Positions 1 to 41,607 of a stretch of DNA of 52,332 nt are shown one piece after another. Below the pieces are notes generated by a model. That model saw only the letters and a program-made list of their open reading frames with translations, was not told where the DNA came from and did not search any database. The stretch's first letter is position 1; each line of letters opens with the position of its first letter. A program made the translations under genes and the position numbers. The stretch comes from Gammaproteobacteria bacterium (GTDB lineage: Bacteria; Pseudomonadota; Gammaproteobacteria; Pseudomonadales; JADFDG01), in contig JBKHWN010000117.1 in NCBI GenBank assembly GCA_046566505.1, forward strand, positions 1 to 52,332. The letters run 5' to 3'.

Positions 1-164
1 CCGCAGTGCCTGCAGCAGGCGGTGCAGGCAGGAGCGGGCGGTCAGGTGTGCAAGGTCGGCGTTCAACATGGTCGGGGATGGCAGATGTGGCCGGTGTGGC
101 CCTCATGCTGCGTTCCGGGCACGACAGAACCCGTCGCGTCCGTTGTCGTCCCCGGCCAGCGGCC

Positions 165-185
165 ATGCGACAGGTTCTGTCGCAT
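165..185. promoter_or_regulatory. Candidate operator palindrome ATGCGACA-GGTTC-TGTCGCAT upstream of the WYL regulator gene
   Basis: Perfect 8-bp inverted repeat with 5-nt spacer read directly, ending 48 nt before ATG 233. The same GCGACA-N5-TGTCGC core recurs at 2868-2886. Extra CGACA/TGTCG half sites at 122-126 and 144-148. Confidence 0.45.
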
Positions 186-232
186 AAGGCGGGCATCATG
201 GCGGTCCTCCATCCGATGCCCGGAGAACACCC

Positions 233-1321
233 ATGACCAGCTCCGCCACCCGCCAGCCGCGCACCGCGAAGCGTGCGGCCAGCCGCCCGGAATCCGGCGG
301 TGTGCTCGAACGGATGCTCGACATGATGTCGATCATCCCGCGGGCGCCGCACTGGATTTCGACCGCCGACGTGGACCAGCGCCTGCGCGGCCTCGGCTAC
401 AGCGTGGACCGGCGCACGGTGGTGCGTGACCTGAACAAGTTGTCGGCACGTTTCGGTATCGAACGGCGCGGCGATTGCGATGCCGGGGAAGGCGGCAAGC
501 GCACGGCCCAGGCCTATGCCTGGCGCTGGCCGGCACAGAGCGCCGGCATCGGCGGCCCGGTGATGACCGAGACCGAGGCGCTGGCGCTGGTGATGGTGCG
601 CGACCGCCTGAATGACATGCTGCCGCCGATGGTGATCGATGCGCTGGCGCCGCAGATCGCCCGTGCCGAACGGAAACTGCGGGGCATCCCCGGCGTTGGC
701 CTGAACCACTGGCATGCCTGTGTGCGCGTGGTACAGCCGACCCAGCCGCTCGGCCGGCCCAGGGTCAGGCCTGCCGTGCGCGACGCGATCCATCTGGCGC
801 TGGCCACGGGCAAGCGGTTCACCGGCTGGTACCGGGCGCGAGGTGCGGCCGAAGCGAAGGAAATGCTGTTCAACCCGCTGGGCCTGGTCATCCGCGGGCA
901 GGTCGCCTACCTGGTGGCCACCAACTGGGAGTACGACGACCCGCGCATCTACCCGTTGCACCGTTTCGAGCGCGTGAAGCAGGAGGATGCGCCGCGTCGC
1001 GAGCCGCCGGGTTTCGACCTGGACACCTTTCTTGCCGCCCAGAACGGCCTGGGTTTCGCCACCGGCCGCGGCGACATCGCCTTGCGCCTGCGTTTCTACC
1101 AGGGCGCCGGGCAGCACCTGCTGGAAACCCCGTTGTCGGAAGACCAGTCGCTGACGGACCTCGGCGAGGGCACGCTGGAGGTGGCCGCGACGGTGCCGGA
1201 AACCAGCCAGCTCACCTGGTGGCTGCTCGGGTTCGCCGGGAACGTGGAAGTGCTGGCCCCCGCCGGACTGCGCGCCGCGATCAAGGAATCCGCAAACGCG
1301 ATGGCGAAGCGGTATCGCTGA
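233..1321 (+). CDS. WYL-domain transcriptional regulator (N-terminal winged HTH plus WYL domain)
   Basis: 362-aa ORF. HTH-like N-terminus LERMLDMMSIIPRAP..STADVDQRLRGLGYSVDRRTVVRDLNKL. WYL-type core GQVAYLVATNWEYDDPRIYPLHRFERV. Architecture as in PafBC/CapW/BrxR-type regulators. Alternative start at ATG 314. Confidence 0.8.
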   Translation: MTSSATRQPRTAKRAASRPESGGVLERMLDMMSIIPRAPHWISTADVDQRLRGLGYSVDRRTVVRDLNKLSARFGIERRGDCDAGEGGKRTAQAYAWRWPAQSAGIGGPVMTETEALALVMVRDRLNDMLPPMVIDALAPQIARAERKLRGIPGVGLNHWHACVRVVQPTQPLGRPRVRPAVRDAIHLALATGKRFTGWYRARGAAEAKEMLFNPLGLVIRGQVAYLVATNWEYDDPRIYPLHRFERVKQEDAPRREPPGFDLDTFLAAQNGLGFATGRGDIALRLRFYQGAGQHLLETPLSEDQSLTDLGEGTLEVAATVPETSQLTWWLLGFAGNVEVLAPAGLRAAIKESANAMAKRYR

Positions 1322-1422
1322 ACGCCGCGCCCCCGCATCAAGGGATCGGCGTGGTTCCGGTTTCGATCATCACTCGGACGTTTGTTGTCGGAGATCCTTG
1401 TCATTGCAGACAGGCCTGATGT

Positions 1423-2667
1423 TCATGGCGTGCCCGCTTCCCGCCACAACGCCGATACCGGAACGGCCCACAGGCCCTTGCCGAACGGCAGCACGTTCTC
1501 GCCCAGGTAGAAAAGCACGCCGGCTGAAAACTTGTCGCCGACCGCTTCCGCGAGCACGCGCAGGCCGCCGAAATCCGCGGCGCCGATATTCGCCGTCGCC
1601 TTGATTTCGATCCCGACGATCCGTTCCCCCGGTGCTTCCAGCACGAGATCGACCTCCTGCCCCGCCGCGCTGCGGAAGTGCCAGGCCGTCGCCGGTTGCG
1701 CGCTCCACGCCAGATGCTTGCGAATTTCCTGCACGACGAATGTTTCCAGCAACGGACCCAGGGCCGGCGAACGCGCCAGCGCCCCCGCGTCGGTCAGGCC
1801 AGCGAGGTGAGCGACGAGGCCCGAATCCAGCAGGTGGATCTTGGGCGACTTCACCAGCCGCTTGCCCAGGTTGGCCGACCAGGCCGGCAACGGCTGCAGC
1901 AGGAACGTCGCCTCCAGCAGCGACAGGTAACGGCGCAACGTCGAATGGGCAATGCCCGACGCCCGCGAAATCTCCGCCATGTTCATCAGCGCCGAAGGCC
2001 GCGCCGCCAGCAGGCCAAGCAGGCGCGGCATGTCGGTCAGGCCCTCGATGTGCGCCAGGTCGCGGATATCGCGCTGCAGGATGCTGGCGATGTAACTGCG
2101 GAACCAGGCATCCCGCCGCTCCGCGTTCTTGCGCTCGACCGCCTCCGGAAAACCCCCCGCAAGCAGCCGCCGGCACACATCGAGCCGGTCGACCGGCAGG
2201 GAGCCCGGCTTCCACGGCTGCCCGGAAAACAGGTCATCGACAAGGTTCGCCGACGTGCCCGCCAGTTCCGCCTGCGAAAGCGGATGCAGCGGCAGGATCT
2301 CCATGCGCCCCGCCAGCGACTCGGCCAGCCGGGGTACCAGGAACACATTTGCCGAGCCCGTCAGCAGGAAGCGCCCCGGGCGCGGATCGATATCGACAGC
2401 CCGTTTGATGGCCGGAAACAGACCCGGCGCGTACTGGACCTCGTCGATCACCGTGAAAGCCGCCGCCCCCTCCACCAGCGCCGACGGATCGGCACTGGCC
2501 AGCGCCAGCGTGGCCGGGTCATCCAGCGTCAGGTAATGGCCACCCCGCTCCGCCGCGACCTGCCGGGCCAGGGTGCTCTTGCCCGTCTGCCGAGCGCCAT
2601 TGAGGAGGACTACCCGGGTGTCGGCGAGGGCGGCCTGCAGGGCTGCGCGGATATGGCGTGGGTGCAT
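1423..2667 (-). CDS. AAA+ ATPase with C-terminal DUF4143 domain (COG1373-type ATP-binding protein)
   Basis: Walker A LLNGARQTGKSTLA, Walker B-like FTVIDEVQ, C-terminal EVDLVLE..IVGIEIKA signature typical of DUF4143. Start placed at ATG 2667 (MHPRHIRAAL). The 65 codons further upstream in the track ORF run into the WYL remnant. Confidence 0.8.
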   Translation of the reverse strand: MHPRHIRAALQAALADTRVVLLNGARQTGKSTLARQVAAERGGHYLTLDDPATLALASADPSALVEGAAAFTVIDEVQYAPGLFPAIKRAVDIDPRPGRFLLTGSANVFLVPRLAESLAGRMEILPLHPLSQAELAGTSANLVDDLFSGQPWKPGSLPVDRLDVCRRLLAGGFPEAVERKNAERRDAWFRSYIASILQRDIRDLAHIEGLTDMPRLLGLLAARPSALMNMAEISRASGIAHSTLRRYLSLLEATFLLQPLPAWSANLGKRLVKSPKIHLLDSGLVAHLAGLTDAGALARSPALGPLLETFVVQEIRKHLAWSAQPATAWHFRSAAGQEVDLVLEAPGERIVGIEIKATANIGAADFGGLRVLAEAVGDKFSAGVLFYLGENVLPFGKGLWAVPVSALWREAGTP

Positions 2668-2706
2668 GGCGGGATATTCGCCGCAGCGTGGCGAAATTGC
2701 AACAGC

Positions 2707-2823
2707 CGGGAGCACGACGACCCGCGCATCGACCCGCTGCACCGTTTCGGGCGCGTGAAGCAGGAGGATGCGCCGCGATGAAGGAATCCGCGAACGGGAT
2801 GGCGAAGCGGTATCGCTGAACGC
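2707..2823 (+). pseudogene. Decayed fragment of a WYL-regulator gene 3' end (second copy, internally deleted and frameshifted)
   Basis: Aligns by eye to 927-996 plus 1280-1325 of the intact WYL gene, with about 7 mismatches over ~116 nt. Track ORFs translate DPRIDPLHRFGRVKQEDAPR here versus DPRIYPLHRFERVKQEDAPR in the intact protein. Junction lies at the shared octamer GCGCCGCG. Confidence 0.75.
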
Positions 2824-2867
2824 GATCGGGTTGCGCGCAAAAAGTATGACGGTGAAGGTCATTCATG

Positions 2868-2886
2868 CGCGACACATCATGTCGCG
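2868..2886. promoter_or_regulatory. Candidate operator palindrome CGCGACA-CATCA-TGTCGCG upstream of the tandem AAA+ ATPase gene
   Basis: Perfect 7-bp inverted repeat with 5-nt spacer, ending 52 nt before ATG 2938. Same core and spacing as the site at 165-185. Confidence 0.45.
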
Positions 2887-2937
2887 ACGCAGCCGCATGA
2901 TGCAGTCCTTCACAGCACAGTCCCGGAGGACGCACCC

Positions 2938-5067
2938 ATGGCCACTCGTCGACGCCGCAAACTCAAGTTTCCGAACCTTTCCGGCAACGCTGGGCACGAA
3001 TACGAGTACGCGCGCCACAAGGCGCTGGTCGCGCTGTCGACGCCATCGACATTCCCGCGCGCGTTTGCCGACGCGCTGCGCCTGGTGGAACGCGATCCGG
3101 ACTCCAGCCTGCTTGAAGACGATCTGCTCGCCTGGCTGCAGGTGATCCCGGAGGATTCCGGCACCCAGGGGCCGGAACACATCCGTCGCCTGATGCTGCA
3201 GGAGACCCGCGGTGCGTCGAAGGGCCGGGTGTCCACGGTATGCAGGCGCAACATCGACTGGCTGGGTGACCTCGTCACGCTGGACAAGGTGGATCGAGAT
3301 TTGCTGGAGCTGGTGGTCACCACACGACAGAACGACATGCTGGCCAATGCCATCGACCGGTGTGGCGAGAAGAACATCCGTGGCGACGGCGAATTGCTGG
3401 GCCGGCTGATCGGTGCATCGGCGAACGCTGTGGTGGCCGCACTGGGTCGCCGGGGCAACCTGACGCGCTACGGCTTCCTGCGCTACGACCATGGTTACGA
3501 GCATTTCGGATCGCGCATCGAGATGCCCGGCGAGATCACCGCGAAGCTGGTCTATCCGTACGAGACGCGCGCGGAGTTCATCGACGGCTTTCTCAACCCG
3601 GCCGAGCCGGCGACGCTCGGCATGGATGACATGCCGCATCTGGCCGCGCACCTGGACACGCTGGTCAAGGTGTTGCCGGGCGCGCTCGCGCGGAACGAAC
3701 GCGGCATCAACATCCTGCTGCACGGCGTGCCGGGCACCGGCAAGACGCAGTGTGCGTCGCTGATCGCCATGCTGGCCGGGCTCGATGCCTACCGGATCGT
3801 CAAGCCGGACGAGGAAGACCCGCAGTCCGGCGGCGAGCGACTGGCGTATTACGCCATCGTGCAACAGATGCTCCGCACGCGCGGCGATGCCATTCTGGTG
3901 TTTGACGAGTTCGAGGACGTGGTGCCGGATGACAATCCGTTCGCCGGTTTCTTCGGCGGCCGTAGTGGCCGGCGCAGCGCACCGATGAAGTCCTGGCTCA
4001 ACCAGATGCTGGAGGACAACCCGGTGCCCACGATCTGGATCTCCAACTCGATCCGTCACATCGACCGCGCGCTGTTGCGTCGATTCACCTATGCGATCGA
4101 GTTCCGCACGCCGCCCGCGTCGGTGCGCCGTCGCATCCTGACCCAGGCCGTGGCCGGGCTGGAGGTGAGCCCGCAGTGGATCGAACGCCAGGCACACATC
4201 GGGAACCTGTCACCGGCGCTGGTGCGCAACGCGGCAAGGATCGCGACGCTGGCCGGTGGTACCGATGTTGCCGCCAACGAAGCGCTGCTCGACCGCACGA
4301 TCGCCGGCAGCCTGAATGCGCTCGGCATGGAGCCCGCGCATACCGGTCTGGTCCCGGTGACGCGCTACGATCTTTCCTTCGTCAATGCCAACCCCGGCCC
4401 GGACAAGGTCGCCGTCAACCTTGCGCGTACCGGCCGCGGCACGCTCTGCTTCTACGGCCCGCCGGGTACCGGCAAGAGCGCCCTCGCCGCGCATCTGGCG
4501 CGGCAACTGGACCGGCCACTGTTGATCAAGCGGGCATCGGACCTGCTCAGCAAGTGGGTGGGCGAGAGCGAGCAGAACATCGCCGCCGCCTTCCGCGAGG
4601 CGACCGACGAGCAGGCCGTGCTGTTGATCGACGAGGCGGACAGCTTTCTCGGCAGCCGCGCCAATGCCCGGCAAAGCTGGGAGGTCACCCAGGTCAACGA
4701 GATGCTGCAGCAGATCGAGCATTTCGACGGCGTGCTCATCTGCACCACCAACCGCATCGAACAGATGGATCCGGCCGTGCTGCGGCGTTTCTCGCACAAA
4801 GTCGGTTTCAGTTACCTCCGGCCCGAGCAGCGCACTGCCATGTTCTTCAGCGAGTTCGGTTCGGTGTTTGCCGAGGAGGAACATCGCGGCGTGGTCAGCC
4901 TGTCGCTGGACCGCCTGGCCAACCTCGCACCCGGCGACTTCGCCACCGTGCGCAAGCAGTTCGATGCGAGTGGCCAGGATCTCGCGCTGCATGAACTGCT
5001 GGCCATGCTCGCCAGCGAGTGCGAACTCAAGCCGGACCGCGAGCGCCGGGCGATCGGGTTCGCCTGA
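2938..5067 (+). CDS. Tandem (double) AAA+ ATPase with ~250-aa N-terminal region of unknown function
   Basis: 709 aa. Module 1: Walker A GVPGTGKTQ, Walker B ILVFDEFED, TIWISN, RALLRRF. Module 2: GPPGTGKSA, VLLIDEADS, LICTTNR, PAVLRRF, plus SKWVGESEQNI typical of classical-clade AAA. I recognise no family in the N-terminal part. Confidence 0.85.
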   Translation: MATRRRRKLKFPNLSGNAGHEYEYARHKALVALSTPSTFPRAFADALRLVERDPDSSLLEDDLLAWLQVIPEDSGTQGPEHIRRLMLQETRGASKGRVSTVCRRNIDWLGDLVTLDKVDRDLLELVVTTRQNDMLANAIDRCGEKNIRGDGELLGRLIGASANAVVAALGRRGNLTRYGFLRYDHGYEHFGSRIEMPGEITAKLVYPYETRAEFIDGFLNPAEPATLGMDDMPHLAAHLDTLVKVLPGALARNERGINILLHGVPGTGKTQCASLIAMLAGLDAYRIVKPDEEDPQSGGERLAYYAIVQQMLRTRGDAILVFDEFEDVVPDDNPFAGFFGGRSGRRSAPMKSWLNQMLEDNPVPTIWISNSIRHIDRALLRRFTYAIEFRTPPASVRRRILTQAVAGLEVSPQWIERQAHIGNLSPALVRNAARIATLAGGTDVAANEALLDRTIAGSLNALGMEPAHTGLVPVTRYDLSFVNANPGPDKVAVNLARTGRGTLCFYGPPGTGKSALAAHLARQLDRPLLIKRASDLLSKWVGESEQNIAAAFREATDEQAVLLIDEADSFLGSRANARQSWEVTQVNEMLQQIEHFDGVLICTTNRIEQMDPAVLRRFSHKVGFSYLRPEQRTAMFFSEFGSVFAEEEHRGVVSLSLDRLANLAPGDFATVRKQFDASGQDLALHELLAMLASECELKPDRERRAIGFA

Positions 5068-5142: not shown

Positions 5143-5236
5143 TGGCGGAGAAGGAGGGAGTCGAACCCTCGATACGGGTTTTAGCCCATATACTCCCTTA
5201 GCAGGGGAGCCCCTTCGGCCACTCGGGCACTTCTCC
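5143..5236 (-). tRNA. tRNA-Ser (anticodon GCU)
   Basis: Reverse complement reads GGAGAAG..CTCCC-CTGCTAA-GGGAG..long variable arm..GAGGG-TTCGACT-CCCTC-CTTCTCC-G-CCA. Cloverleaf folds by eye. Confidence 0.9.
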
Positions 5237-5369: not shown

Positions 5370-5446
5370 GCGCCCGTAGCTCAGTTGGATAGAGTACCTG
5401 GCTACGAACCAGGTGGTCGGGAGTTCGAATCTCTCCGGGCGCACCA
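5370..5446 (+). tRNA. tRNA-Arg (anticodon ACG)
   Basis: GCGCCCGTAGCTCAGTTGGATAGAGTA-CCTGG-CTACGAA-CCAGG..GGGAGTTCGAATCTCTC-CGGGCGC-ACCA. Canonical 77-nt cloverleaf. Confidence 0.95.
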
Positions 5447-5454
5447 TCTACCGC

Positions 5455-5496
5455 AAACAAAAAGGCCGGCATGTAATTGCCGGCCTTTTTGTTTGC
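5455..5496. terminator. Bidirectional intrinsic terminator
   Basis: CAAACAAAAA-GGCCGGCA-tgtaat-TGCCGGCC-TTTTTGTTTG. GC stem flanked by an A-run and a T-run. Lies between tRNA-Arg (+) and the small minus-strand ORF. Confidence 0.7.
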
Positions 5497-5546: not shown

Positions 5547-5759
5547 TCAGCGCGTGGCGCTGGCCCTTTCTCGCAGCGAATCAAGGCTGTGTACCCGCGG
5601 CGCCTCGTGCTCATGGCGCGGCAGGTCGCGCAGCGCGGCAAACACCACGGCATCCGCATACCCGAGGAAGGCGCGCGCATGATCCGTGAGCCGCATGCGC
5701 GCCACCAGCGCGTCGAGCTCCCGCTTGGCTTCGTGTAGCTCCCGGTCCTGGTTGATCAT
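5547..5759 (-). CDS. Hypothetical small protein (70 aa)
   Basis: ATG preceded by AGGGGTGG. G/C-rich third codon positions. Ends before the bidirectional terminator. No family recognised. Confidence 0.45.
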   Translation of the reverse strand: MINQDRELHEAKRELDALVARMRLTDHARAFLGYADAVVFAALRDLPRHEHEAPRVHSLDSLRERASATR

Positions 5760-6009
5760 CGGTGGCCACCCCTGTCTGTTGTTTGTGCGTTGGCTGTTGC
5801 CGCTTGGCGTGGGTGTGTTTTAGCACTGACGTGTTACGTAAAGAATCCGGCGGGTGTCGGTTTTTGCCTGCGAATTACCCGTATCAGAAATTAATCGTAG
5901 GCGCCGGAATCTCGTTGTTTTGGCGGGGTCTTCCCGCTACATTGCGCGGCCTGAAGGCCGGAACTCACCGGTCACGCTGCCGCTCGTGGTGACCGACAGG
6001 GGCCTGCCC

Positions 6010-6255
6010 ATGAATCCGCTTCTCTCCCAGGGTATCGAACTCATGCTGGTCGGCATGGGTGTCGTGTTCGTCTTTCTGGTGATGCTGGTCGGCGCCGTGA
6101 CATTGATGTCGCAACTGGTTGCCCGGTTCGCGCCGGACGCGCCGCTGGCCGTCACCCCGCGCGGCCCGGTCGCCGCACCGGCCGGGCCGGGCGTCGATGA
6201 CCGGACGCTGGCCGTCATCCACGAGGCGGTGCGCCGCCATCGCGGGCAGGCCTGA
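6010..6255 (+). CDS. oadG: Oxaloacetate decarboxylase gamma subunit
   Basis: MNPLLSQGIELMLVGMGVVFVFLVMLV single-TM N-terminus typical of OadG, directly upstream of oadA/oadB. Start moved to ATG 6010 within the longer track ORF. Confidence 0.75.
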   Translation: MNPLLSQGIELMLVGMGVVFVFLVMLVGAVTLMSQLVARFAPDAPLAVTPRGPVAAPAGPGVDDRTLAVIHEAVRRHRGQA

Positions 6256-6314
6256 TCCGAGCACCCTGACCCCGTCCGTCGACCCGCTGTCTTCTGCGCG
6301 CCCGGAGTAGCCCC

Positions 6315-8099
6315 ATGAGCACGACCCCGAAGCCCCTTGGCATTACCGACGTTGTCCTGCGCGATGCCCACCAGTCCCTGCTGGCCACCCGCATGCGGCT
6401 GGAGGACATGCTGCCGGTGGCCGACAAGCTCGACCGCGTCGGCTTCTGGTCGCTGGAGTCCTGGGGTGGCGCCACCTTCGATGCCTGCATCCGCTACCTG
6501 GGCGAGGACCCCTGGGCGCGCGTCCGCGCGCTGAAGGCGGCGATGCCCAACACGCCGCAGCAGATGCTGCTGCGCGGGCAGAATCTGCTGGGTTACCGCC
6601 ACTACGCGGACGACGTGGTCGACCGCTTCGTCGAGCGCGCCGCAAAGAACGGCATCGACGTCTTCCGCGTGTTCGACGCGATGAACGACGTGCGCAACCT
6701 GGATCGCGCGATGAAAGCGGTGATCCGCGAGGGCAAGCACGCGCAGGGTACGATCTCCTACACGGTCAGTCCGGTACACACCATCGACATGTGGGTGGAC
6801 CTGGCGCGGCGCATCGAGGACCAGGGCGCGCACTCGCTGTGCATCAAGGACATGGCCGGCCTGCTGACGCCCTACACCGCGTTCGAACTGGTGTCGCGGC
6901 TGAAGCAGGCGATCGTGATTCCGGTGCACATGCATTGTCATGCCACCACGGGCCTGTCGACGGCGACCATCCTGAAAGCGGCGGAAGCGGGCATCGACAA
7001 CGTCGATACGGCGATTTCCTCGATGTCGATGACCTACGGGCATTCGGCGACCGAGGCGGTGGTGGCGATCTTCGCCGGCACCGGCCGCGACACCGGGCTC
7101 AACCTGGTACTGCTGGAGGACATCGCGGCCTGTTTCCGCGACGTCCGCAAGAAGTACGCGAAGTTCGAAGGTTCGCTCAAGGGCATCGATTCACGCATCC
7201 TCGTGGCGCAGGTGCCCGGCGGCATGCTCACCAACATGGAAAGCCAACTTCGCGAGCAGAAGGCCGAGTCGCGTTTCGACGAAGTGCTCGCAGAAATCCC
7301 GCGCGTGCGCAAGGACCTCGGTTACATCCCGCTGGTGACGCCGACCTCGCAGATCGTCGGCACCCAGGCGGTGCTGAACGTGCTGTCGGGCGAGCGCTAC
7401 AAGAGCATTTCCAAGGAAACCCAGGGCGTGCTGCGCGGTGAATACGGCGCGGCACCGGCACCGTTCGACGCGGCACTGCAGGCGCGCGTGCTGGAGGGCG
7501 CCTCGCCGGTGACCTGCCGGCCGGCAGACCTGCTGCAGCCGGAGATGGAAAAACTCACCACCGAGTTGCGCAAACTGGCCGACGAGCAGCGCATGCGCCT
7601 GGAAACCGGCGACCGGCTGCTCGACGACGTGCTGACCTATGCGCTGTTCCCGCAGATCGGCCTGAAGTTCCTGCAGAACCGCGGCAACCCGGCGGCGTTC
7701 GAGCCGGTGCCGACCGGCCGCGAGGGCCAGGCGCCGCAGGCGGCGAACGGCGACGAGATCTACACGGTGACCGTCGAAGGCCGAGCCTACACGGTGACGG
7801 TGAACGCAGGCGGTGACATCACCGGCATCGTGCCGCCGGCGGCGGTAGCGAATGCAGCGGCGTCCGTCGCGGTGCCGGTGGCCGATGGCGAGCCGATGCT
7901 CGCGCCGCTGGCCGGCAACATCTTCAAGGTCTTCGCCCGCCCCGGGCAGAGCGTGCAGGAGGGCGACCTGCTGCTGACGCTGGAGGCGATGAAGATGGAG
8001 ACCGAGATCCGCGCGCCGCACGCCGGCATCGTGGCGTCGGTGTCGGTGAAGGAAGGCGATGTCGTCGCCGTCGGCGACCTGCTGCTGTCGATAGGCTGA
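6315..8099 (+). CDS. oadA: Oxaloacetate decarboxylase alpha subunit (carboxyltransferase plus biotinyl domain)
   Basis: [39 protein letters not shown] carboxyltransferase N-terminus. C-terminal biotin attachment motif [10 protein letters not shown]. Confidence 0.95.
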
Positions 8100-8106
8100 G
8101 GCACCG

Positions 8107-9249
8107 ATGGAAATCCTGCTCAAGCTTTGGCAATCCACCGGCCTGTACCACATGGCGGTCGGGCAGCTGGTGATGATCGTTGTCTGCCTCGGGCTGATCT
8201 ACCTGGCCATCCGCAAGGGGTTCGAGCCGCTGCTGCTGGTGCCGATCGCCTTTGGCGGCCTGCTTGCCAACATTCCGGTCGCCAACATGGCCGAAGGCAC
8301 CGGCTTCCTGCACCTGCTCTATGAAATCGGCCTGCCGACCAGTGTGTTCCCGCTGCTGATTTTCCTCGGCGTCGGCGCGATGACCGATTTCGGGCCGATG
8401 CTGGCCAACCCGCGCACATTGTTGCTGGGTGCCGCCGCGCAGTTCGGCATTTTCGGCACCTTGCTCGGGGCCGTCGCACTCACGGTGTGGGGCGTGCCCG
8501 GCTTCGAGTTCACGATGCAGCAGGCGGCGTCGATCGCCATCATCGGCGGCGCCGACGGCCCGACCTCCATCTACGTGACGGCGCGTCTAGCGCCGGAGCT
8601 GCTCGGGCCGATTGCGGTCGCCGCCTATTCGTACATGGCGCTGGTGCCGCTGATCCAGCCGCCGATCATGCGCGCGCTCACCACCGAGGCCGAGCGCAGG
8701 ATCGTGATGCAGCAACTGCGTCCGGTCGGGCGCACGGAAAAGATCGTGTTCCCGCTGGTGCTGGTGCTGCTGGTCGGTTTCCTGCTGCCGGACGCGGCGC
8801 CGCTGGTGGGCATGTTCGCCTTCGGCAACCTGATGCGGGAGTGTGGTGTCGTCGAGCGTCTGGCAGACACTGCGCGCAACGCGCTGATCAACGTGGTCAC
8901 CATTGCGCTGGGCCTGACGGTTGGTGCCAAGCTCAGTGCCGATTCCTTCCTGCAGCTGACAACGCTGGGCATCATCGTGCTCGGGCTGGTTGCGTTCTCG
9001 CTGGGCACGGCGGCCGGCGTGATCATGGCCAAAATCATGAACCTGTTCTCGACGCAGAAGATCAACCCGCTGATCGGCTCGGCCGGCGTGTCGGCGGTGC
9101 CGATGGCGGCGCGGGTGTCGAACAAGGTCGGCCTGGAGGCGAATCCGCAGAACTTCCTGCTGATGCATGCCATGGGGCCGAACGTGGCCGGCGTGATCGG
9201 CTCGGGCGTGGCGGCGGGGATCCTGCTGACGTTTGCCGGCGGCCGGTAG
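8107..9249 (+). CDS. oadB: Oxaloacetate decarboxylase beta subunit (Na+-translocating membrane subunit)
   Basis: 380-aa polytopic membrane protein. [11 protein letters not shown] and [13 protein letters not shown] motifs are typical of the OadB/GcdB/MmdB family. Confidence 0.95.
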
Positions 9250-9300
9250 CGGCGTCGCGGGTTGCGCTCCGGCAGCGGCGCGCCGCCGTGCGTGCGGGAA

Positions 9301-9334
9301 ACAACCGCAATCGAGAAACAACAGCAATCGAGAA
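9301..9334. repeat. 17-bp tandem direct repeat ACAAC(C/A)GCAATCGAGAA x2
   Basis: Two adjacent copies with one mismatch, read directly. An A/T-richer patch that ends 1 nt from the 3' end of tRNA-Arg(CCU). Confidence 0.8.
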
Positions 9335-9335
9335 A

Positions 9336-9411
9336 TGGTGCCCCGGAGAGGACTTGAACCTCTGACCTTCCCCTTAGGAGGGGGACGCGCTATCCACTGT
9401 GCCACCGGGGC
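9336..9411 (-). tRNA. tRNA-Arg (anticodon CCU)
   Basis: Reverse complement GCCCCGGTGGCACAGTGGATAGCGCG-TCCCC-CTCCTAA-GGGGA..AGAGGTTCAAGTCCTCT-CCGGGGC-ACCA. Confidence 0.95.
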
Positions 9412-9534
9412 GAAGCGCGGCCATTCTAGCGGCGCAAACACAGCGCCGGAACCCGTCGTCGGCGAATTGCCCCTGCGCGTCGTGCGCCGGCGGCGACCGG
9501 CCCGGCGGCGCACGCTATATACTGCCGCGCCCCG

Positions 9535-10173
9535 ATGACCCGGTTTTCCGCGATGCCTGCCGATCCCCTGCTGCGTGCCGCCGGTCTCGTCGCGATCCGC
9601 GACGGGCGCACGCTGTTCGACGGGCTGGATGTCGAAGTGCACGCCGGCGAAGTCGTGCGTGTGGAAGGCCCGAACGGCGCCGGCAAGACCACGTTGCTGC
9701 GCATCCTCTGCGGGCTGGACCAGGATTTCGCCGGCGATATCGCTTTCCCCCGGGCGGACGGTGCCGGGCGCCCCTGGCGTGCCGACGTGCTGTTCCTCGG
9801 TCATTTGCCAGGCCTGAAGCCGACGCTGACCGCCGCCGAGAACCTCGACTGGCTGACCCGTCTGCGCGCCGCCGCGCTGCGCAGCAGTGTCTCCGACGCG
9901 CTGGCGACCGTGGGCCTGGCCGGTTACGAGGACGTGTCCGTCGCGCAGATGTCCGCCGGACAGAAGCGGCGCGTGGCGCTGGCACGGCTGCACCTGGAGC
10001 AGGCGCCGCTGTGGGTGCTGGATGAGCCATTCACCGCCATCGACAAGGACGGCGTCGCTGCGCTGGAAGCCACGCTGGCGCGCCATGCCGAACAAGGTGG
10101 AGCCGTGCTGGTCACCACCCATCACACGCTGGCGATCACGGCCCGACCGTTGCGGCTGGGGGCGGCGGCATGA
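9535..10173 (+). CDS. ccmA: Cytochrome c biogenesis heme-exporter ATP-binding protein
   Basis: Walker A GPNGAGKTTLLR, ABC signature MSAGQKRRVALA, Walker B LWVLDEP. First gene of a ccmABCDE run. Confidence 0.9.
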   Translation: MTRFSAMPADPLLRAAGLVAIRDGRTLFDGLDVEVHAGEVVRVEGPNGAGKTTLLRILCGLDQDFAGDIAFPRADGAGRPWRADVLFLGHLPGLKPTLTAAENLDWLTRLRAAALRSSVSDALATVGLAGYEDVSVAQMSAGQKRRVALARLHLEQAPLWVLDEPFTAIDKDGVAALEATLARHAEQGGAVLVTTHHTLAITARPLRLGAAA

Positions 10174-40233: not shown

Positions 40234-40362
40234 GTGCGGACAGGTCACTTGAAGGTATCGGGTTATTATCGGGCGCTCGCCGGTGGCCGCATCAAGGCAC
40301 CACGGTTGCCGGCACCGTGACGGCCGGGATTGTGGCGCCCCAGCCCCTCAAAAGGAATGTCG

Positions 40363-41607
40363 ATGGCAGTTTCAGCCGATATCCGGCGCACATGGCGATT
40401 TCTGGTCTCGCTGGTGCGCGAATACGAAGAAACGGGCTGTGACGACAGCGCCGCGAAGTTGACCTATACCACCCTGTTCGCCGTGGTCCCGACACTGACA
40501 GTCGCCTGGGCCATCGTGCGGGCGCTGCCGCAACTGGGTGATATCGGCATCGATCTTGACCGCCTGCTGTTCAGCAACCTGGTGCCGGCGACCGGTGACC
40601 AGGTGCGCGAGTACATCAGCGCCTTCGCCGAGCAGGCGGCCAACCTGACCGGGATCGGCGTCGCGTTCCTCGCGGTGACCGCCGTGATGATGCTGCTGAC
40701 CATCGAGCGTCGCATCAACGCGGTCTGGCGACTGCATCGCGAGCGCAGCCTCGTGTCCAGCCTGCTCGTGTACTGGGCATTGCTGACACTCGGCCCGGTA
40801 TTGCTCGGCGCGGGCATCGGCGCCAGTTCCTACCTGCTCTCGACCGAACTCTGGGGCGAAGACGTGCAGCGGCGGACGGCGGTCGTCGTGCTGCTGGGCG
40901 CCGTCCCGTTCCTGGTCGAGGTCATCTTTTTCTCGCTGTTGTACATCGTTGTGCCCCACTGCAGCGTACCGATCCGCGATGGCGTCATCGGCGGGATTAT
41001 CGCGGCGCTGCTGTTTGAAATCGCCAAGGCGGGCTTTACCTTTTTCGTCACCCGCTTCAACAGTTACGAACTCGTCTATGGCGCGTTTGCCGCGGTGCCG
41101 TTGTTCCTGTTGTGGATCTACATTTCCTGGTCGATCACCCTGTTCGGTGTCGTGCTGGTCTACACGCTGTCGAACCACGACGACGAAGTCGTCCGCCGCG
41201 GCACGGCGTTCCCGGCGCTGCTCAAGGTGCTGGGGCTGTTCCACCAGCGACAGCGTGAAGGCCGCCCGGTCGCCGACGCCGAGGCCCGGCGCCTCGCGCG
41301 GGCCTCGGGCATCGGTAACTGGCACGACTGGCGGGAAACGCTGCTGCGCCGGCGGCTGGTGGAGCGGTTGGCCAATGGTGAACTGGTGCTGGTGCGTGAC
41401 CTGCACGCGGTCACGCTTGCCGATCTGGTGCGGTTGCTGTCCTGGCCGCAGATTGAGCGTGCCAATGATGGCGGGCAGGAGCCGGATGCGTTCGCGCAGG
41501 CGCTTGCCCAGACCCTCACCGACGCGCTGGCTGTCTTTGACGCCAGGCTCGGGGACTCGGTGGCTTCCGTACTCGAATCACCCCTCGCGCAGGAAATTGC
41601 CACATGA
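40363..41607 (+). CDS. YihY/BrkB-family membrane protein
   Basis: AAKLTYTTLFAVVPTL..ERRINAVW..WALLTLGP..YGAFAAVPLFLLWIYISW motifs. AAGGA lies 6 nt upstream of ATG 40363. Confidence 0.85.
   Translation: MAVSADIRRTWRFLVSLVREYEETGCDDSAAKLTYTTLFAVVPTLTVAWAIVRALPQLGDIGIDLDRLLFSNLVPATGDQVREYISAFAEQAANLTGIGVAFLAVTAVMMLLTIERRINAVWRLHRERSLVSSLLVYWALLTLGPVLLGAGIGASSYLLSTELWGEDVQRRTAVVVLLGAVPFLVEVIFFSLLYIVVPHCSVPIRDGVIGGIIAALLFEIAKAGFTFFVTRFNSYELVYGAFAAVPLFLLWIYISWSITLFGVVLVYTLSNHDDEVVRRGTAFPALLKVLGLFHQRQREGRPVADAEARRLARASGIGNWHDWRETLLRRRLVERLANGELVLVRDLHAVTLADLVRLLSWPQIERANDGGQEPDAFAQALAQTLTDALAVFDARLGDSVASVLESPLAQEIAT

Follow-up and report, generated by a model that had tools for sequence, protein, structure and literature searches.

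The window analysed here, a stretch of 52,332 nucleotides, holds at its left edge the right half of an ~8.5-kb accessory cassette, the edge cutting through the insert. The missing part is carried by a public contig (L004), which matches the window without a difference over 5218 nt (subtracting 3846 from an L004 coordinate gives the window coordinate). There, lysC-csrA is followed by the DUF2779 and PcfJ-like genes and, beyond the divergent PcfJ-like/WYL junction, by the WYL, DUF4143 and AAA+ genes and tRNA-Ser. The cassette sits in the spacer of ~50 bp that separates the csrA terminator from the 3' end of tRNA-Ser(GCU) (5143-5236). Since this tRNA gene lies on the minus strand, its 3' end faces the block and forms the right-hand insertion boundary, 76 nt from the stop codon of the AAA+ gene; tRNA-Arg(ACG) (5370-5446) comes next. 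In the closest relative, assembly GCA_018262975.1 (OadA 83% identical), the site is empty: the order is alaS-lysC-csrA-tRNA-Ser-tRNA-Arg-oadGAB with nothing inserted, and the alignment picks up again exactly at the tRNA-Ser 3' end. The island insertion on the tRNA-Ser flank suggested by the initial annotation, whose listed elements were all present at their positions, is thus an accessory insertion. A homologous WYL/AAA/DUF2779/PcfJ module is present in the relative on a different contig. Neither an integrase nor an att repeat was found in the cassette and its flanks.

The leftmost gene of the window is the PcfJ-like gene, represented by its 5' end (first 23 codons, 1-69, minus strand), with the remainder beyond the left edge. 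On the public contig it encodes 612 aa (L004 2077-3915, minus strand), and behind it lies a DUF2779 gene of 507 aa (L004 488-2011, minus strand). The PcfJ domain match is limited to one C-terminal domain (residues 474-583, E 7e-14), and this domain occurs twice in the module of the relative. The DUF2779 protein combines Cas4-like and DEDD-like/3'-5' exonuclease-like features; its gene was found in 22 loci of the ATPase family, often directly downstream and on the same strand. In other lineages, the ATPase gene shares an operon with DUF2779, with a DEDDh exonuclease gene or with a sirtuin (Sir2) gene, the product of the last matching PF02146 and no PADLOC model.

A transcription regulator of 362 aa with wHTH-WYL-WCX architecture is encoded at 233-1321 (plus strand). 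It matches the Pfam families WYL (E 7e-13) and WCX (E 2e-16), and a PADLOC WYL model spans residues 25-344. Its best solved homologues are DriD chains (7TZV, 7U02, 8TP8 and 9PFQ; E 1e-7), followed by PafC, and no solved structure beyond these two proteins matched at E < 0.01. Identity to DriD is low and restricted to the WYL-WCX part, while the alignment retains the WYL-motif Tyr and the equivalents of Arg204 and of the aromatic residue 206. With DriD as nearest solved homologue and the same box, the regulator is, by sequence, of the DriD/DdaA kind, which comprises ssDNA-activated DNA-damage activators, and not of the CapW/BrxR type to which it was initially compared. The WYL-repressed defence systems CapW-CBASS and BrxR-BREX likewise have a WYL regulator adjoining accessory genes, but the box used here is that of activators, and the Pfam models WHD_BrxR and BrxR_CTD gave no match in the window's regulator.

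The predicted operator of the regulator is a perfect palindrome, CGACA-N5-TGTCG, and equals the published motifs of DriD (CGAC-N7-GTCG) and DdaA (CGWCA-N5-TGWCG). Two exact copies were found in the 52-kb window (0.3 expected), both 50-53 nt ahead of a start codon. More specifically, the predicted promoter of the WYL gene (168-199, plus strand) consists of the box CGACAGGTTCTGTCG (168-182), 11 nt and the -10-like hexamer CATCAT (194-199), with 50 nt from the box end to the ATG at 233. That of the AAA+ gene (2870-2901, plus strand) consists of the box CGACACATCATGTCG (2870-2884), 11 nt and CATGAT (2896-2901), with 53 nt to the ATG at 2938. A third box, of DriD type, faces the PcfJ-like gene (CGACAGAACCCGTCG, 122-136) in a predicted promoter at 105-136 (minus strand) with a -10-like CAGCAT (110-105), and a fourth lies upstream of DUF2779 on the public contig. 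All four stand 11 nt before a -10-like hexamer; the spacing at the PcfJ-like gene was read straight from the sequence and obeys the rule derived from the family-wide set of 28 promoters.

In that set, which is non-redundant, the box is followed after 11 nt by nAnAnT (A 21/28, A 16/28, T 21/28). The same spacing was read in a published DriD-activated promoter sequence, and DriD boxes are known to overlap the -35 position with a constant spacing to the -10 element. Exact boxes number 40 in 2.47 Mb of family loci, where 2.4 would be expected, and 31 of the 40 stand immediately before an AAA, WYL or DUF2779 gene. On independent plasmid loci from alpha-, beta- and gamma-proteobacteria, the WYL gene adjoins the AAA gene and the box lies 45-50 nt upstream. 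The orientation of the two genes varies between loci (divergent, convergent or co-directional), so their link outlasts rearrangement. Given that both genes are preceded by the same perfect palindrome, which is conserved before homologues throughout the family, the AAA+ gene is very probably controlled by the WYL regulator, in line with the original proposal. The accompanying idea of a single-gene system had to be given up, since the cassette extends past the left window edge and includes PcfJ-like and DUF2779 genes, each with its own box. WYL regulators can also be repressors (CapW, BrxR), and a repressor, too, could act from a box over the -35 position. Unlike Caulobacter DriD, which does not activate its own gene, the WYL gene here has a box at an activating position.

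The AAA+ gene (2938-5067, plus strand) encodes a protein of 709 aa with two PF00004 modules (Pfam, E 1.6e-44 over two stretches). D1 (approximately residues 233-470; 3634-4347, plus strand) contains the Walker A motif GVPGTGKT (G263-K269), the Walker B motif VFDEFED (D323/E324), the sensor-1 residue N370 and LLRRF (R381/R382). D2 with its lid and C-terminal tail (residues 471-709; 4348-5067, plus strand) contains GPPGTGKS (G507-K513), LIDEAD (D565/E566), N605 and VLRRF (R616/R617). These residues are invariant in 92 homologues; the motifs of both modules, earlier described as apparently complete, are intact. D2 has a canonical pore loop (K539-W540-V541-G542), a conserved PGDF (665-668) and a near-invariant C-terminal IGF (G707, F708); in D1, no aromatic pore loop was found.

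The AlphaFold model of the whole protein (pLDDT 90.8, pTM 0.84) was matched best by Rix7, Cdc48, NVL, p97 and Afg2 in Foldseek (~550 columns, E 1e-17), and phmmer returned VAT, Cdc48 and p97. The ATPase is thus modelled with confidence as a Cdc48/p97/Rix7-like type II AAA+ protein. It has in common with them the tandem D1-D2 arrangement with intact Walker A/B, sensor-1 and arginine fingers, as well as the aromatic-hydrophobic-Gly pore loop in D2. Identity is only about 15-21% over the aligned structure, however, and D1 differs in having no aromatic pore loop. The arginine-finger motif is a further difference, being of the RRF type known from Vps4, spastin and SpoVK, and the C-terminus ends in the conserved IGF and not in an HbYX-type tail.

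The N-terminal domain (residues 1-232; 2938-3633, plus strand) is predicted to be all alpha-helical (AlphaFold, pLDDT 88), in contrast to the double-psi-barrel of Cdc48, and is family-specific. No match was obtained with Pfam, NCBIfam or PADLOC for these ~230 aa, which had already gone unrecognised in the initial annotation, nor with PDB and BFVD structures (best E about 1). A profile search retrieved 2363 representative clusters, and in all of the best 150 of the listed matches, mostly proteins of ~700 aa, the domain is N-terminal. With a net charge of -2 the domain is not basic, and no DNA-binding fold could be detected in it; nothing therefore points to a direct link with DNA. For the protein as a whole, the proposed HMM searches place it, by sequence, in no named family of PADLOC or NCBIfam; only PHROG phrog_10401 ('ATPase') matches, over residues 98-708. 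PADLOC-DB 2.0.0 gave no full-length match. The best PADLOC/NCBIfam matches, through the classic AAA module, were IetA/IteA of the IetAS anti-phage system and TRIP13/Cap6 of CBASS, confined to residues ~500-648 in D2 (125 bits against the NCBIfam cut-off of 510). Unlike those systems, the cassette contains neither an IetS protease nor a HORMA partner.

To place the cassette among its relatives, neighbourhood statistics were compiled from the 80 best-scoring loci of each collection using ORFs that we called ourselves in high-GC DNA. A beta-proteobacterial clade (Variovorax, Ramlibacter, Ralstonia, Cupriavidus and others) makes up 68 of the 152 sampled family members (~45%) and has conserved, core-like synteny. 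Here, a WYL gene, box or DUF2779 gene was found in 0 of 54 loci with adequate flanks, and a box in 0 of 68, so the ATPase family is not bound to the regulon. Conserved core contexts without WYL neighbours, named at the outset as evidence against such a module, are thus seen in part, and for this clade only. Outside it, 26 of 39 loci with adequate flanks have at least one of box, WYL and DUF2779; a DriD-type box stands at the gene start in 26 of 84 loci (1.45 expected); and WYL, DUF2779 and PcfJ-like genes accompany the ATPase in 4/4 contexts seen for the window's own clade (55-71% identity).

As a whole, these data point to a widespread, so far unstudied stress-response or defence module. At roughly even odds (about 0.5), we favour a self-contained DriD/DdaA-type regulon in which an ssDNA-induced, Cdc48-like unfoldase acts together with nucleases. 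The WYL protein would sense, as a homodimer, ssDNA arising from DNA damage or from replicating or invading foreign DNA. Bound to its boxes at the -35 position, 11 nt upstream of the -10 element, it would recruit RNA polymerase and switch on four promoters, which drive the 709-aa ATPase, the DUF2779 nuclease, the PcfJ-like gene and the regulator itself. The ATPase would assemble into a Cdc48/p97-like double-ring hexamer with both rings hydrolysing ATP, hold clients through its helical N-domain and thread polypeptides through the D2 pore (KWVG loop). Its most likely task would be to pull proteins off damaged or foreign DNA or to unfold them there, letting the co-induced nucleases act, and it may also clear those proteins afterwards.

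Regulator architecture, operator and promoter geometry (box over -35, 11 nt before the -10 element) are shared with the DriD/DdaA systems. Unlike DriD and DdaA, the regulator described here is borne on a mobile cassette, serves an apparently local four-promoter regulon and is not known to be a master regulator of the whole chromosome. Tandem AAA+ ATPase, DUF2779 and PcfJ-like genes are absent among the published targets in the portions of the literature compared (didA, bapE, recJ, dnaG, recA, CCNA_03891/01149, aciT, ssb, uvrA/C, and RM and Cas genes). An analogy, and only that, can be drawn to the actinobacterial PafBC/Pup-proteasome locus, where genetic linkage joins a DNA-damage regulator of the WYL type to an AAA+ unfoldase system removing repair proteins after damage (PMC8223512). 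PafBC differs in being a heterodimer and in having another, non-palindromic motif, its Mpa/ARC ATPase is a single-ring proteasomal activator as opposed to the predicted double ring, and proteasome/Pup genes are absent here.

A possible, less probable alternative is anti-phage or anti-plasmid defence. The WYL protein would hold the cassette off or primed until infection ssDNA appears, and the conserved core ATPase would serve as sensor, activator or dismantler of phage protein assemblies, paired with effectors that can be exchanged, namely the DUF2779 nuclease in this cassette and either a sirtuin or a DEDDh exonuclease in other lineages. In favour of this reading, the module is mobile and accessory (the relative's site is empty, and 22 plasmids carry family members), and effector-like partners are exchanged between lineages. 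Several contexts also speak for defence more than for repair: BREX-2, DISARM-like genes with BrxR, GmrSD, McrBC, PDC-S01, toxin-antitoxin pairs (MazE/PIN, HipBA) and Sir2. Next to one distant member are a BrxR gene and DISARM-like genes; another member is encoded downstream of BREX-2. Furthermore, DdaA-type regulators have been reported to drive RM and CRISPR-Cas genes besides repair genes. Against this stand the IetA/TRIP13 matches to D2 only, the sirtuin partner outside the PADLOC models, the many loci among housekeeping genes, the core-like beta-proteobacterial clade and the DNA-damage activators as closest characterised relatives of the regulator. The near absence of the family from phage genomes is neutral in this respect.

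It is improbable that the ATPase is a bacterial counterpart of Cdc48 acting in general proteostasis, as chaperone or segregase, with an incidental WYL link or mere stress-inducible expression: the beta-proteobacterial loci would fit, but the association with box, WYL and DUF2779 outside that clade, its constancy in the window's own clade and the missing gene at the relative's syntenic site argue against it. Slightly less probable still is a cassette serving a mobile element, for instance in establishment or anti-restriction functions induced by incoming ssDNA, for although the PcfJ family is named for a gene of the conjugative plasmid pCF10, its domain recurs in the relative's module, family members occur on plasmids and ssDNA-responsive promoters would suit conjugative entry, the PcfJ match covers one C-terminal domain only, PcfJ itself has no known function, no conjugation, replication, integrase or transposase genes were found in or adjoining the cassette, and most plasmid matches are on large non-mobilizable replicons or chromids.

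The DUF4143 ATPase is a passenger inserted between the WYL and AAA+ genes. It comprises 414 aa (1423-2667, minus strand, as called on the identical contig) within an open reading frame of 1423-2862, matches Pfam AAA_14 and DUF4143, and belongs to the PADLOC candidate family PDC-S01 (E 9e-166). Inspection of 2668-2869 showed no -10-like hexamer at the box spacing and hence no DriD-type promoter for this gene. Upstream of it, at 2700-2823 (plus strand; repeat families D1 and D2), lies the remnant of a second WYL gene copy. It consists of the equivalents of 919-996 (91%) and 1272-1325 (94%), which meet at the 8-bp repeat GCGCCGCG; it is thus 91-94% identical to the intact gene and includes that gene's stop codon.

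We interpret the locus as a regulon of the DriD/DdaA type, the class of the WYL activators DriD (Caulobacter) and DdaA (Acinetobacter), with a new effector family. Rechecking the ORFs, Pfam matches and tRNA positions bore out the coordinates and gene content of the initial annotation. More specifically, the window carries a 362-aa WYL regulator (233-1321, plus strand), an ATPase with AAA_14 and DUF4143 domains on the minus strand (Pfam; ORF 1423-2862, called as 1423-2667, 414 aa, on an identical public contig; PADLOC PDC-S01, E 9e-166), and the 709-aa ATPase with two PF00004 AAA modules (2938-5067, plus strand). The exact 709-aa protein is also encoded by three Logan contigs. At 76 nt from the ATPase stop codon lies tRNA-Ser(GCU) (5143-5236, minus strand), its 3' end towards the block, and downstream of it follow tRNA-Arg(ACG) and then oxaloacetate decarboxylase genes.

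The identical public contig, L004, matches the window over 5218 nt with zero mismatches and reaches 3.8 kb further left. Its order is the lysC 3' end, csrA with a terminator, a DUF2779 gene (minus strand, 507 aa), a PcfJ-like gene (minus strand, 612 aa), the WYL gene (plus strand), the DUF4143 gene (minus strand), a WYL remnant and the AAA gene (plus strand). This order identifies window positions 1-69 as the minus-strand start of the PcfJ-like coding sequence, and the window splits the cassette unit in half. The ATPase had been proposed as the effector of a WYL-controlled single-gene system, a view that did not hold, as L004 adds the DUF2779 and PcfJ-like genes beyond the left edge of the window.

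The WYL protein has a wHTH-WYL-WCX architecture, in which Pfam recognizes WYL and WCX, the PADLOC WYL model covers residues 25-344 and the wHTH itself is without a Pfam match. In a PDB search, DriD chains were the top matches (E 1e-7), PafC scored far weaker, and no other solved structure was found at E < 0.01. The suggested likeness to CapW- or BrxR-type regulators was dropped, since the protein has no WHD_BrxR or BrxR_CTD Pfam match and its solved homologues are DriD and PafC only. Of the seven residues with which DriD contacts ssDNA, a pairwise alignment shows three to be kept (the equivalents of Tyr192, Arg204 and the aromatic residue 206) and the others not. By analogy with its family, the regulator would be activated by single-stranded DNA.

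DdaA of Acinetobacter binds CGWCA-N5-TGWCG and DriD binds CGAC-N7-GTCG. The 52-kb window contains exactly two copies of the perfect palindrome GCGACA-N5-TGTCGC, against 0.3 expected for the degenerate form, and the core of the palindrome, CGACA-N5-TGTCG, equals the published operator of the DriD/DdaA class. One copy (167-183) ends 49 nt before the WYL ATG, and the other (2869-2885) ends 52 nt before the ATPase ATG. A looser DriD-form site, CGACAGAACCCGTCG (122-136), faces the PcfJ-like gene, and a fourth site, an exact one on L004, lies 44 nt upstream of the DUF2779 start. Far from the cassette, and apparently within ORF 40330-41607, a DriD-type site CGACACTGACAGTCG (40490-40504) is probably a chance match.

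The predicted boxes also share a fixed promoter geometry. Alignment of 28 non-redundant promoters on the box revealed, after 11 nt, a hexamer nAnAnT (A at position 2 in 21, A at position 4 in 16 and T at position 6 in 21), which is a predicted -10 element. All three hexamers in the window obey this spacing, namely CAGCAT for the PcfJ-like gene, CATCAT for the WYL gene and CATGAT for the ATPase gene. The published DriD-activated driD/CCNA_03891 promoter, as read here, consists of a box, 11 nt and CAATCT. According to cryo-EM work, the distance between the -10 element and the DriD boxes, which overlap the -35 position, is constant, and the boxes recruit RNA polymerase.

Across the family, 40 exact boxes were counted in 2.47 Mb around 177 members, compared with 2.4 expected from base composition, and 31 of the 40 stand immediately upstream of an AAA, WYL or DUF2779 gene. 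Plasmid members in Sphaerotilus (beta), Novosphingobium (alpha) and Pseudomonas luteola (gamma) have a WYL gene adjoining the ATPase gene and a box 45-50 nt before the start. Taken together, the conserved predicted boxes, the fixed promoter geometry and the homology to DriD place the AAA gene in a DriD/DdaA-type regulon. Control by the SOS response was rejected, as the regions upstream of family members yielded no LexA box (CTGT-N8-ACAG), bar one match at chance level.

Several individual loci deserve mention. The box of the Sphaerotilus plasmid ATPase (contig L214, 5645) is the identical 15-mer, CGACAGGTTCTGTCG, found in the WYL promoter of the window (168-182), with the proteins only ~37% identical. 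A Rhodanobacteraceae contig (L065, 13786 and 16972) holds four exact boxes in 10 kb: one upstream of DUF2779, one in the WYL/AAA intergenic region, one ~46 nt upstream of a sirtuin-like gene, and one not assigned to a gene. This cluster suggests a larger local regulon. On contig L002, two ATPase paralogues of 690 and 710 aa (5847-7919 and 8001-10133) stand in tandem on the same strand; a box or near-box precedes each, and the WYL gene upstream of them is divergent.

The ATPase itself retains intact catalytic motifs. In both modules, D1 and D2, the Walker A and Walker B motifs, the sensor-1 Asn and two SRH arginines are invariant in 92 sequences. An AlphaFold monomer model built with 92 homologues (pLDDT 90.8, pTM 0.84) matched Rix7, Cdc48, NVL, p97 and Afg2 in a Foldseek search of the PDB (E 1e-17 to 1e-15, ~550 columns, TM 0.4-0.6), and phmmer matched the ATPase to VAT, Cdc48 and p97. 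D2 carries a canonical aromatic-hydrophobic-glycine pore loop (K539-W540-V541-G542), and D1 is without one. Given the intact motifs and the pore loop confined to D2, the protein is best described as a predicted type II classic-clade AAA+ motor in which the D2 ring would translocate the substrate.

The two ends of the protein are distinctive. The N-domain (residues 1-232) is all-helical, with a model pLDDT of 88, unlike the double-psi barrel and beta-clam of Cdc48, p97 and VAT, and Foldseek searches with it against the PDB and BFVD returned nothing below an E value of about 1. A winged helix considered at residues ~145-195 was discarded because no structural match supports it. As the domain lacks a fold match and is not basic, we take it as a client- or partner-binding domain. 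At the C-terminus, members of the family share a near-invariant R-x-I-G-F with 0-7 residues behind it (here residues 703-709, window 5047-5067), and this tail is disordered or of low confidence in the model. ClpX has an IGF loop that docks onto ClpP, and the IGF tail of the ATPase resembles that loop by analogy; it could otherwise be an inter-subunit tail.

Comparison with named families revealed no match that covers the protein in full. The NCBIfam CDC48 model scored 77 bits against a cut-off of 803. Assignment to IetA/IteA was rejected, as NF042959 reached 125 bits against a cut-off of 510 and covered residues 502-648 only, the same stretch as the PADLOC IetA match; the IetS protease gene is absent from the cassette, which comprises the DUF2779, PcfJ-like, WYL, DUF4143 and AAA genes. 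TRIP13 membership was likewise rejected, with the match restricted to D2 and no partner genes. A search of PADLOC-DB 2.0.0 gave no full-length model match for the ATPase, DUF2779 or PcfJ-like proteins: the ATPase obtained partial AAA matches, DUF2779 a weak Cas4 match (E 3e-5) and the PcfJ-like protein no match at all, and the DUF4143 protein matched PDC-S01. In the published CoCoNuT-associated Cdc48-like ATPases, unlike in this ATPase, only the C-terminal module is active and extra C-terminal domains are present. We found no publication naming the ATPase family, including in searches that combined DUF2779, PcfJ and WYL, Cdc48-like and WYL, or PcfJ and pCF10, and the portions of the DriD and DdaA papers available to us mention no AAA+, DUF2779 or PcfJ gene as a target. 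Judged against the accessible literature and libraries, no named family fits the ATPase.

The family is large. A first homology search gave 407 clusters at 90% identity (E < 1e-10), at least 536 matches occur in species-representative genomes, and an N-domain profile retrieved 2363 representatives at 50% identity, 1506 of them with E < 1e-10. In the best 150 N-domain matches, the domain is always N-terminal and mostly part of a protein of ~700 aa. GTDB representative genomes and JGI metagenome contigs yielded no relative of more than 50% identity, and the close clade was seen in four contexts only. A phage origin of the gene was rejected, with one match in 50,697 phage records and a handful of IMG/VR contigs, mostly at contig ends; given this rarity, the PHROG match reflects rare or prophage-border cases.

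Neighbourhood counts come from ORF calls and HMMs of our own and cover, per collection, the 80 loci with the highest scores, and loci of high GC were annotated by clustering and pre-computed gene calls. A rough neighbour-joining distance tree of 152 members contains a beta-proteobacterial clade of 68 (Variovorax, Ramlibacter, Polaromonas, Ralstonia, Cupriavidus and others) with conserved synteny. In this clade, a WYL gene, box or DUF2779 gene was found in none of the 54 loci with adequate flanks, and boxes were found in none of the 68. The other branches have at least one of the three in 26 of 39 loci with adequate flanks, and a DriD-type box at the gene start in 26 of 84, compared with 1.45 in shuffles. 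The WYL gene is divergent, convergent or co-directional to the ATPase gene depending on the locus, which argues for a functional link rather than an inherited arrangement. In some beta-clade genomes (L087 3330-4742; L012; L015), the ATPase gene is preceded, at a distance of 0.1-2 kb, by a fusion of a DnaQ-like exonuclease and a Cho/UvrC-like nuclease, which hints at a DNA-repair connection even without the WYL gene and box.

Nucleases recur among the partners. DUF2779, in which a Cas4-like PD-(D/E)XK domain is joined with a predicted 3'-5' exonuclease domain, accompanies the ATPase in 22 loci; in seven of these it directly follows the ATPase gene on the same strand, and in two it stands directly upstream. 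Other partners are a DEDDh exonuclease, a PF02146 sirtuin that is translationally coupled in some loci and, in one case, a TM0106-type RecB-like nuclease.

With a probability of roughly one half, we infer that the locus is an ssDNA-responsive, WYL-activated cassette in which a Cdc48-like unfoldase would act together with co-induced nucleases. The observation that underlay the initial annotation, a WYL regulator beside a tandem AAA+ protein, is confirmed, and its interpretation as a stress or anti-phage module is supported in part only. The main rival, which we consider possible and rather unlikely, holds that the same machinery serves phage or plasmid defence. Only recently was it recognized that WYL activators of the DriD and DdaA type sense DNA damage independently of SOS and that, in Moraxellaceae, they also drive defence genes. 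The wider contexts of the family are mixed, some resembling defence islands (BREX-2, BrxR with DISARM-like genes, GmrSD, McrBC and toxin-antitoxin pairs) and others being plainly housekeeping. These two explanations differ in biological role and share the same regulatory and enzymatic logic. A more speculative proposal, to which we give little credence, would see in the family the bacterial counterpart, in function, of eukaryotic Cdc48/p97, working in genome maintenance or immunity. Here, an ssDNA-induced segregase would pull proteins such as trapped enzymes, DNA-protein adducts or phage replication and packaging complexes off DNA for the co-induced Cas4-DEDD nuclease, its IGF tail perhaps docking ClpP as in ClpX. 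If such docking were true, the ATPase would be a previously unrecognized damage-inducible ClpP partner.

The locus suggests that the box and its promoter logic are used well beyond Caulobacter and Acinetobacter. In alpha-, beta- and gamma-proteobacteria they are apparently carried by plasmids and mobile cassettes and drive a large unstudied protein family of at least 1,500 clusters at 50% identity, in which a predicted Cdc48-like double-ring motor is joined to a new N-terminal fold and accompanied by nucleases or a sirtuin. Should the predicted regulation be borne out, three boxes, one regulator and one ATPase make a directly testable entry point to the role of a protein unfoldase in a bacterial ssDNA-triggered response, be it repair or immunity.

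The comparison with related strains that had been proposed for the tRNA-Ser flank uncovered an empty site in GCA_018262975.1. The OadA protein (oxaloacetate decarboxylase alpha subunit) of the window is 83% identical to that of this genome and 76% identical to Alcanivoracaceae, Microbulbifer and Pseudomonas proteins, a placement within the gammaproteobacteria. The relative has the order alaS, lysC, csrA, tRNA-Ser(GCU, minus strand), tRNA-Arg(ACG), oadG, oadA and oadB, with only ~90 bp from the csrA stop codon to the tRNA-Ser 3' end. In the alignment, homology with L004 stops just past the csrA terminator and homology with the window restarts exactly at the tRNA-Ser 3' end, so that the ~8.5-kb cassette is absent from the syntenic site; the spacer there is poorly conserved and the cassette ends are therefore approximate. 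The relative carries its own module on another contig (L001), comprising a 713-aa ATPase (62% identical), a WYL gene, a DUF2779 gene and two PcfJ-like genes. From the empty site and this second location, we conclude that the module is accessory and moves between sites.

Next to the L001 module stand a second WYL gene accompanied by an AAA gene of one module, a helicase of the NERD/UvrD type and a MazE/PIN pair. In that region (1077-3346), the second WYL gene, a 317-aa single-module AAA protein with AAA_lid_3 and small unknown genes precede the NERD/UvrD_C_2 helicase, and they may form a second WYL-ATPase module of a different type.

The flank had been regarded as an island insertion. Insertion at the tRNA 3' end, absent from the relative, agrees with this, and the hallmarks of a classical integrative island are missing, for which reason that class was rejected: no integrase or transposase is present among the cassette genes on the L004 stretch, an att-repeat search gave no flanking direct repeat including the tRNA-Ser 3' end, and block GC (0.66-0.70) shows no anomaly against the rest of the window (0.63-0.72).

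The WYL remnant (2700-2823) records an earlier arrangement. It consists of two pieces, one equivalent to 919-996 (91% identity) and one to 1272-1325 (94% identity), joined at the 8-bp repeat GCGCCGCG, with a 275-bp internal deletion between two such repeats. Its last bases are the WYL stop codon, ~50 nt short of the AAA box, which indicates that the AAA promoter was once directly preceded by a second WYL gene in the same orientation; the DUF4143 gene now stands where the 5' part of that gene used to be. The 91-94% identity to the intact copy would reflect either an old duplication or the fusion of two related modules. The repeat lies at 2770-2777 at the remnant junction and at 989-996 and 1272-1279 in the intact gene, which suggests a microhomology-mediated deletion. 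Inspection of the sequence upstream of the DUF4143 gene revealed no DriD-type promoter facing it, and the gene is therefore regarded as a passenger. Another module, on contig L003, is also accompanied by a DUF4143 gene.

Around the tRNA genes, three further features were seen. The three independent contigs L004, L005 and L006, all carrying the identical ATPase, end at the same base, window position 5218 inside tRNA-Ser and 151 nt past the ATPase stop, which may mark an assembly-graph branch, e.g. from tRNA strain variation or repeats common to tRNA-Ser genes. Directly after tRNA-Arg, a perfect 19-nt inverted repeat, GCAAACAAAAAGGCCGGCA / TGCCGGCCTTTTTGTTTGC (5453-5496), looks like a bidirectional terminator. 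Finally, a 70-aa ORF (5547-5759, minus strand) between tRNA-Arg and oadG, without a Pfam family, is probably a real small gene, and the relative has a gene called at the same position and strand (L218 9286-9498, minus strand).
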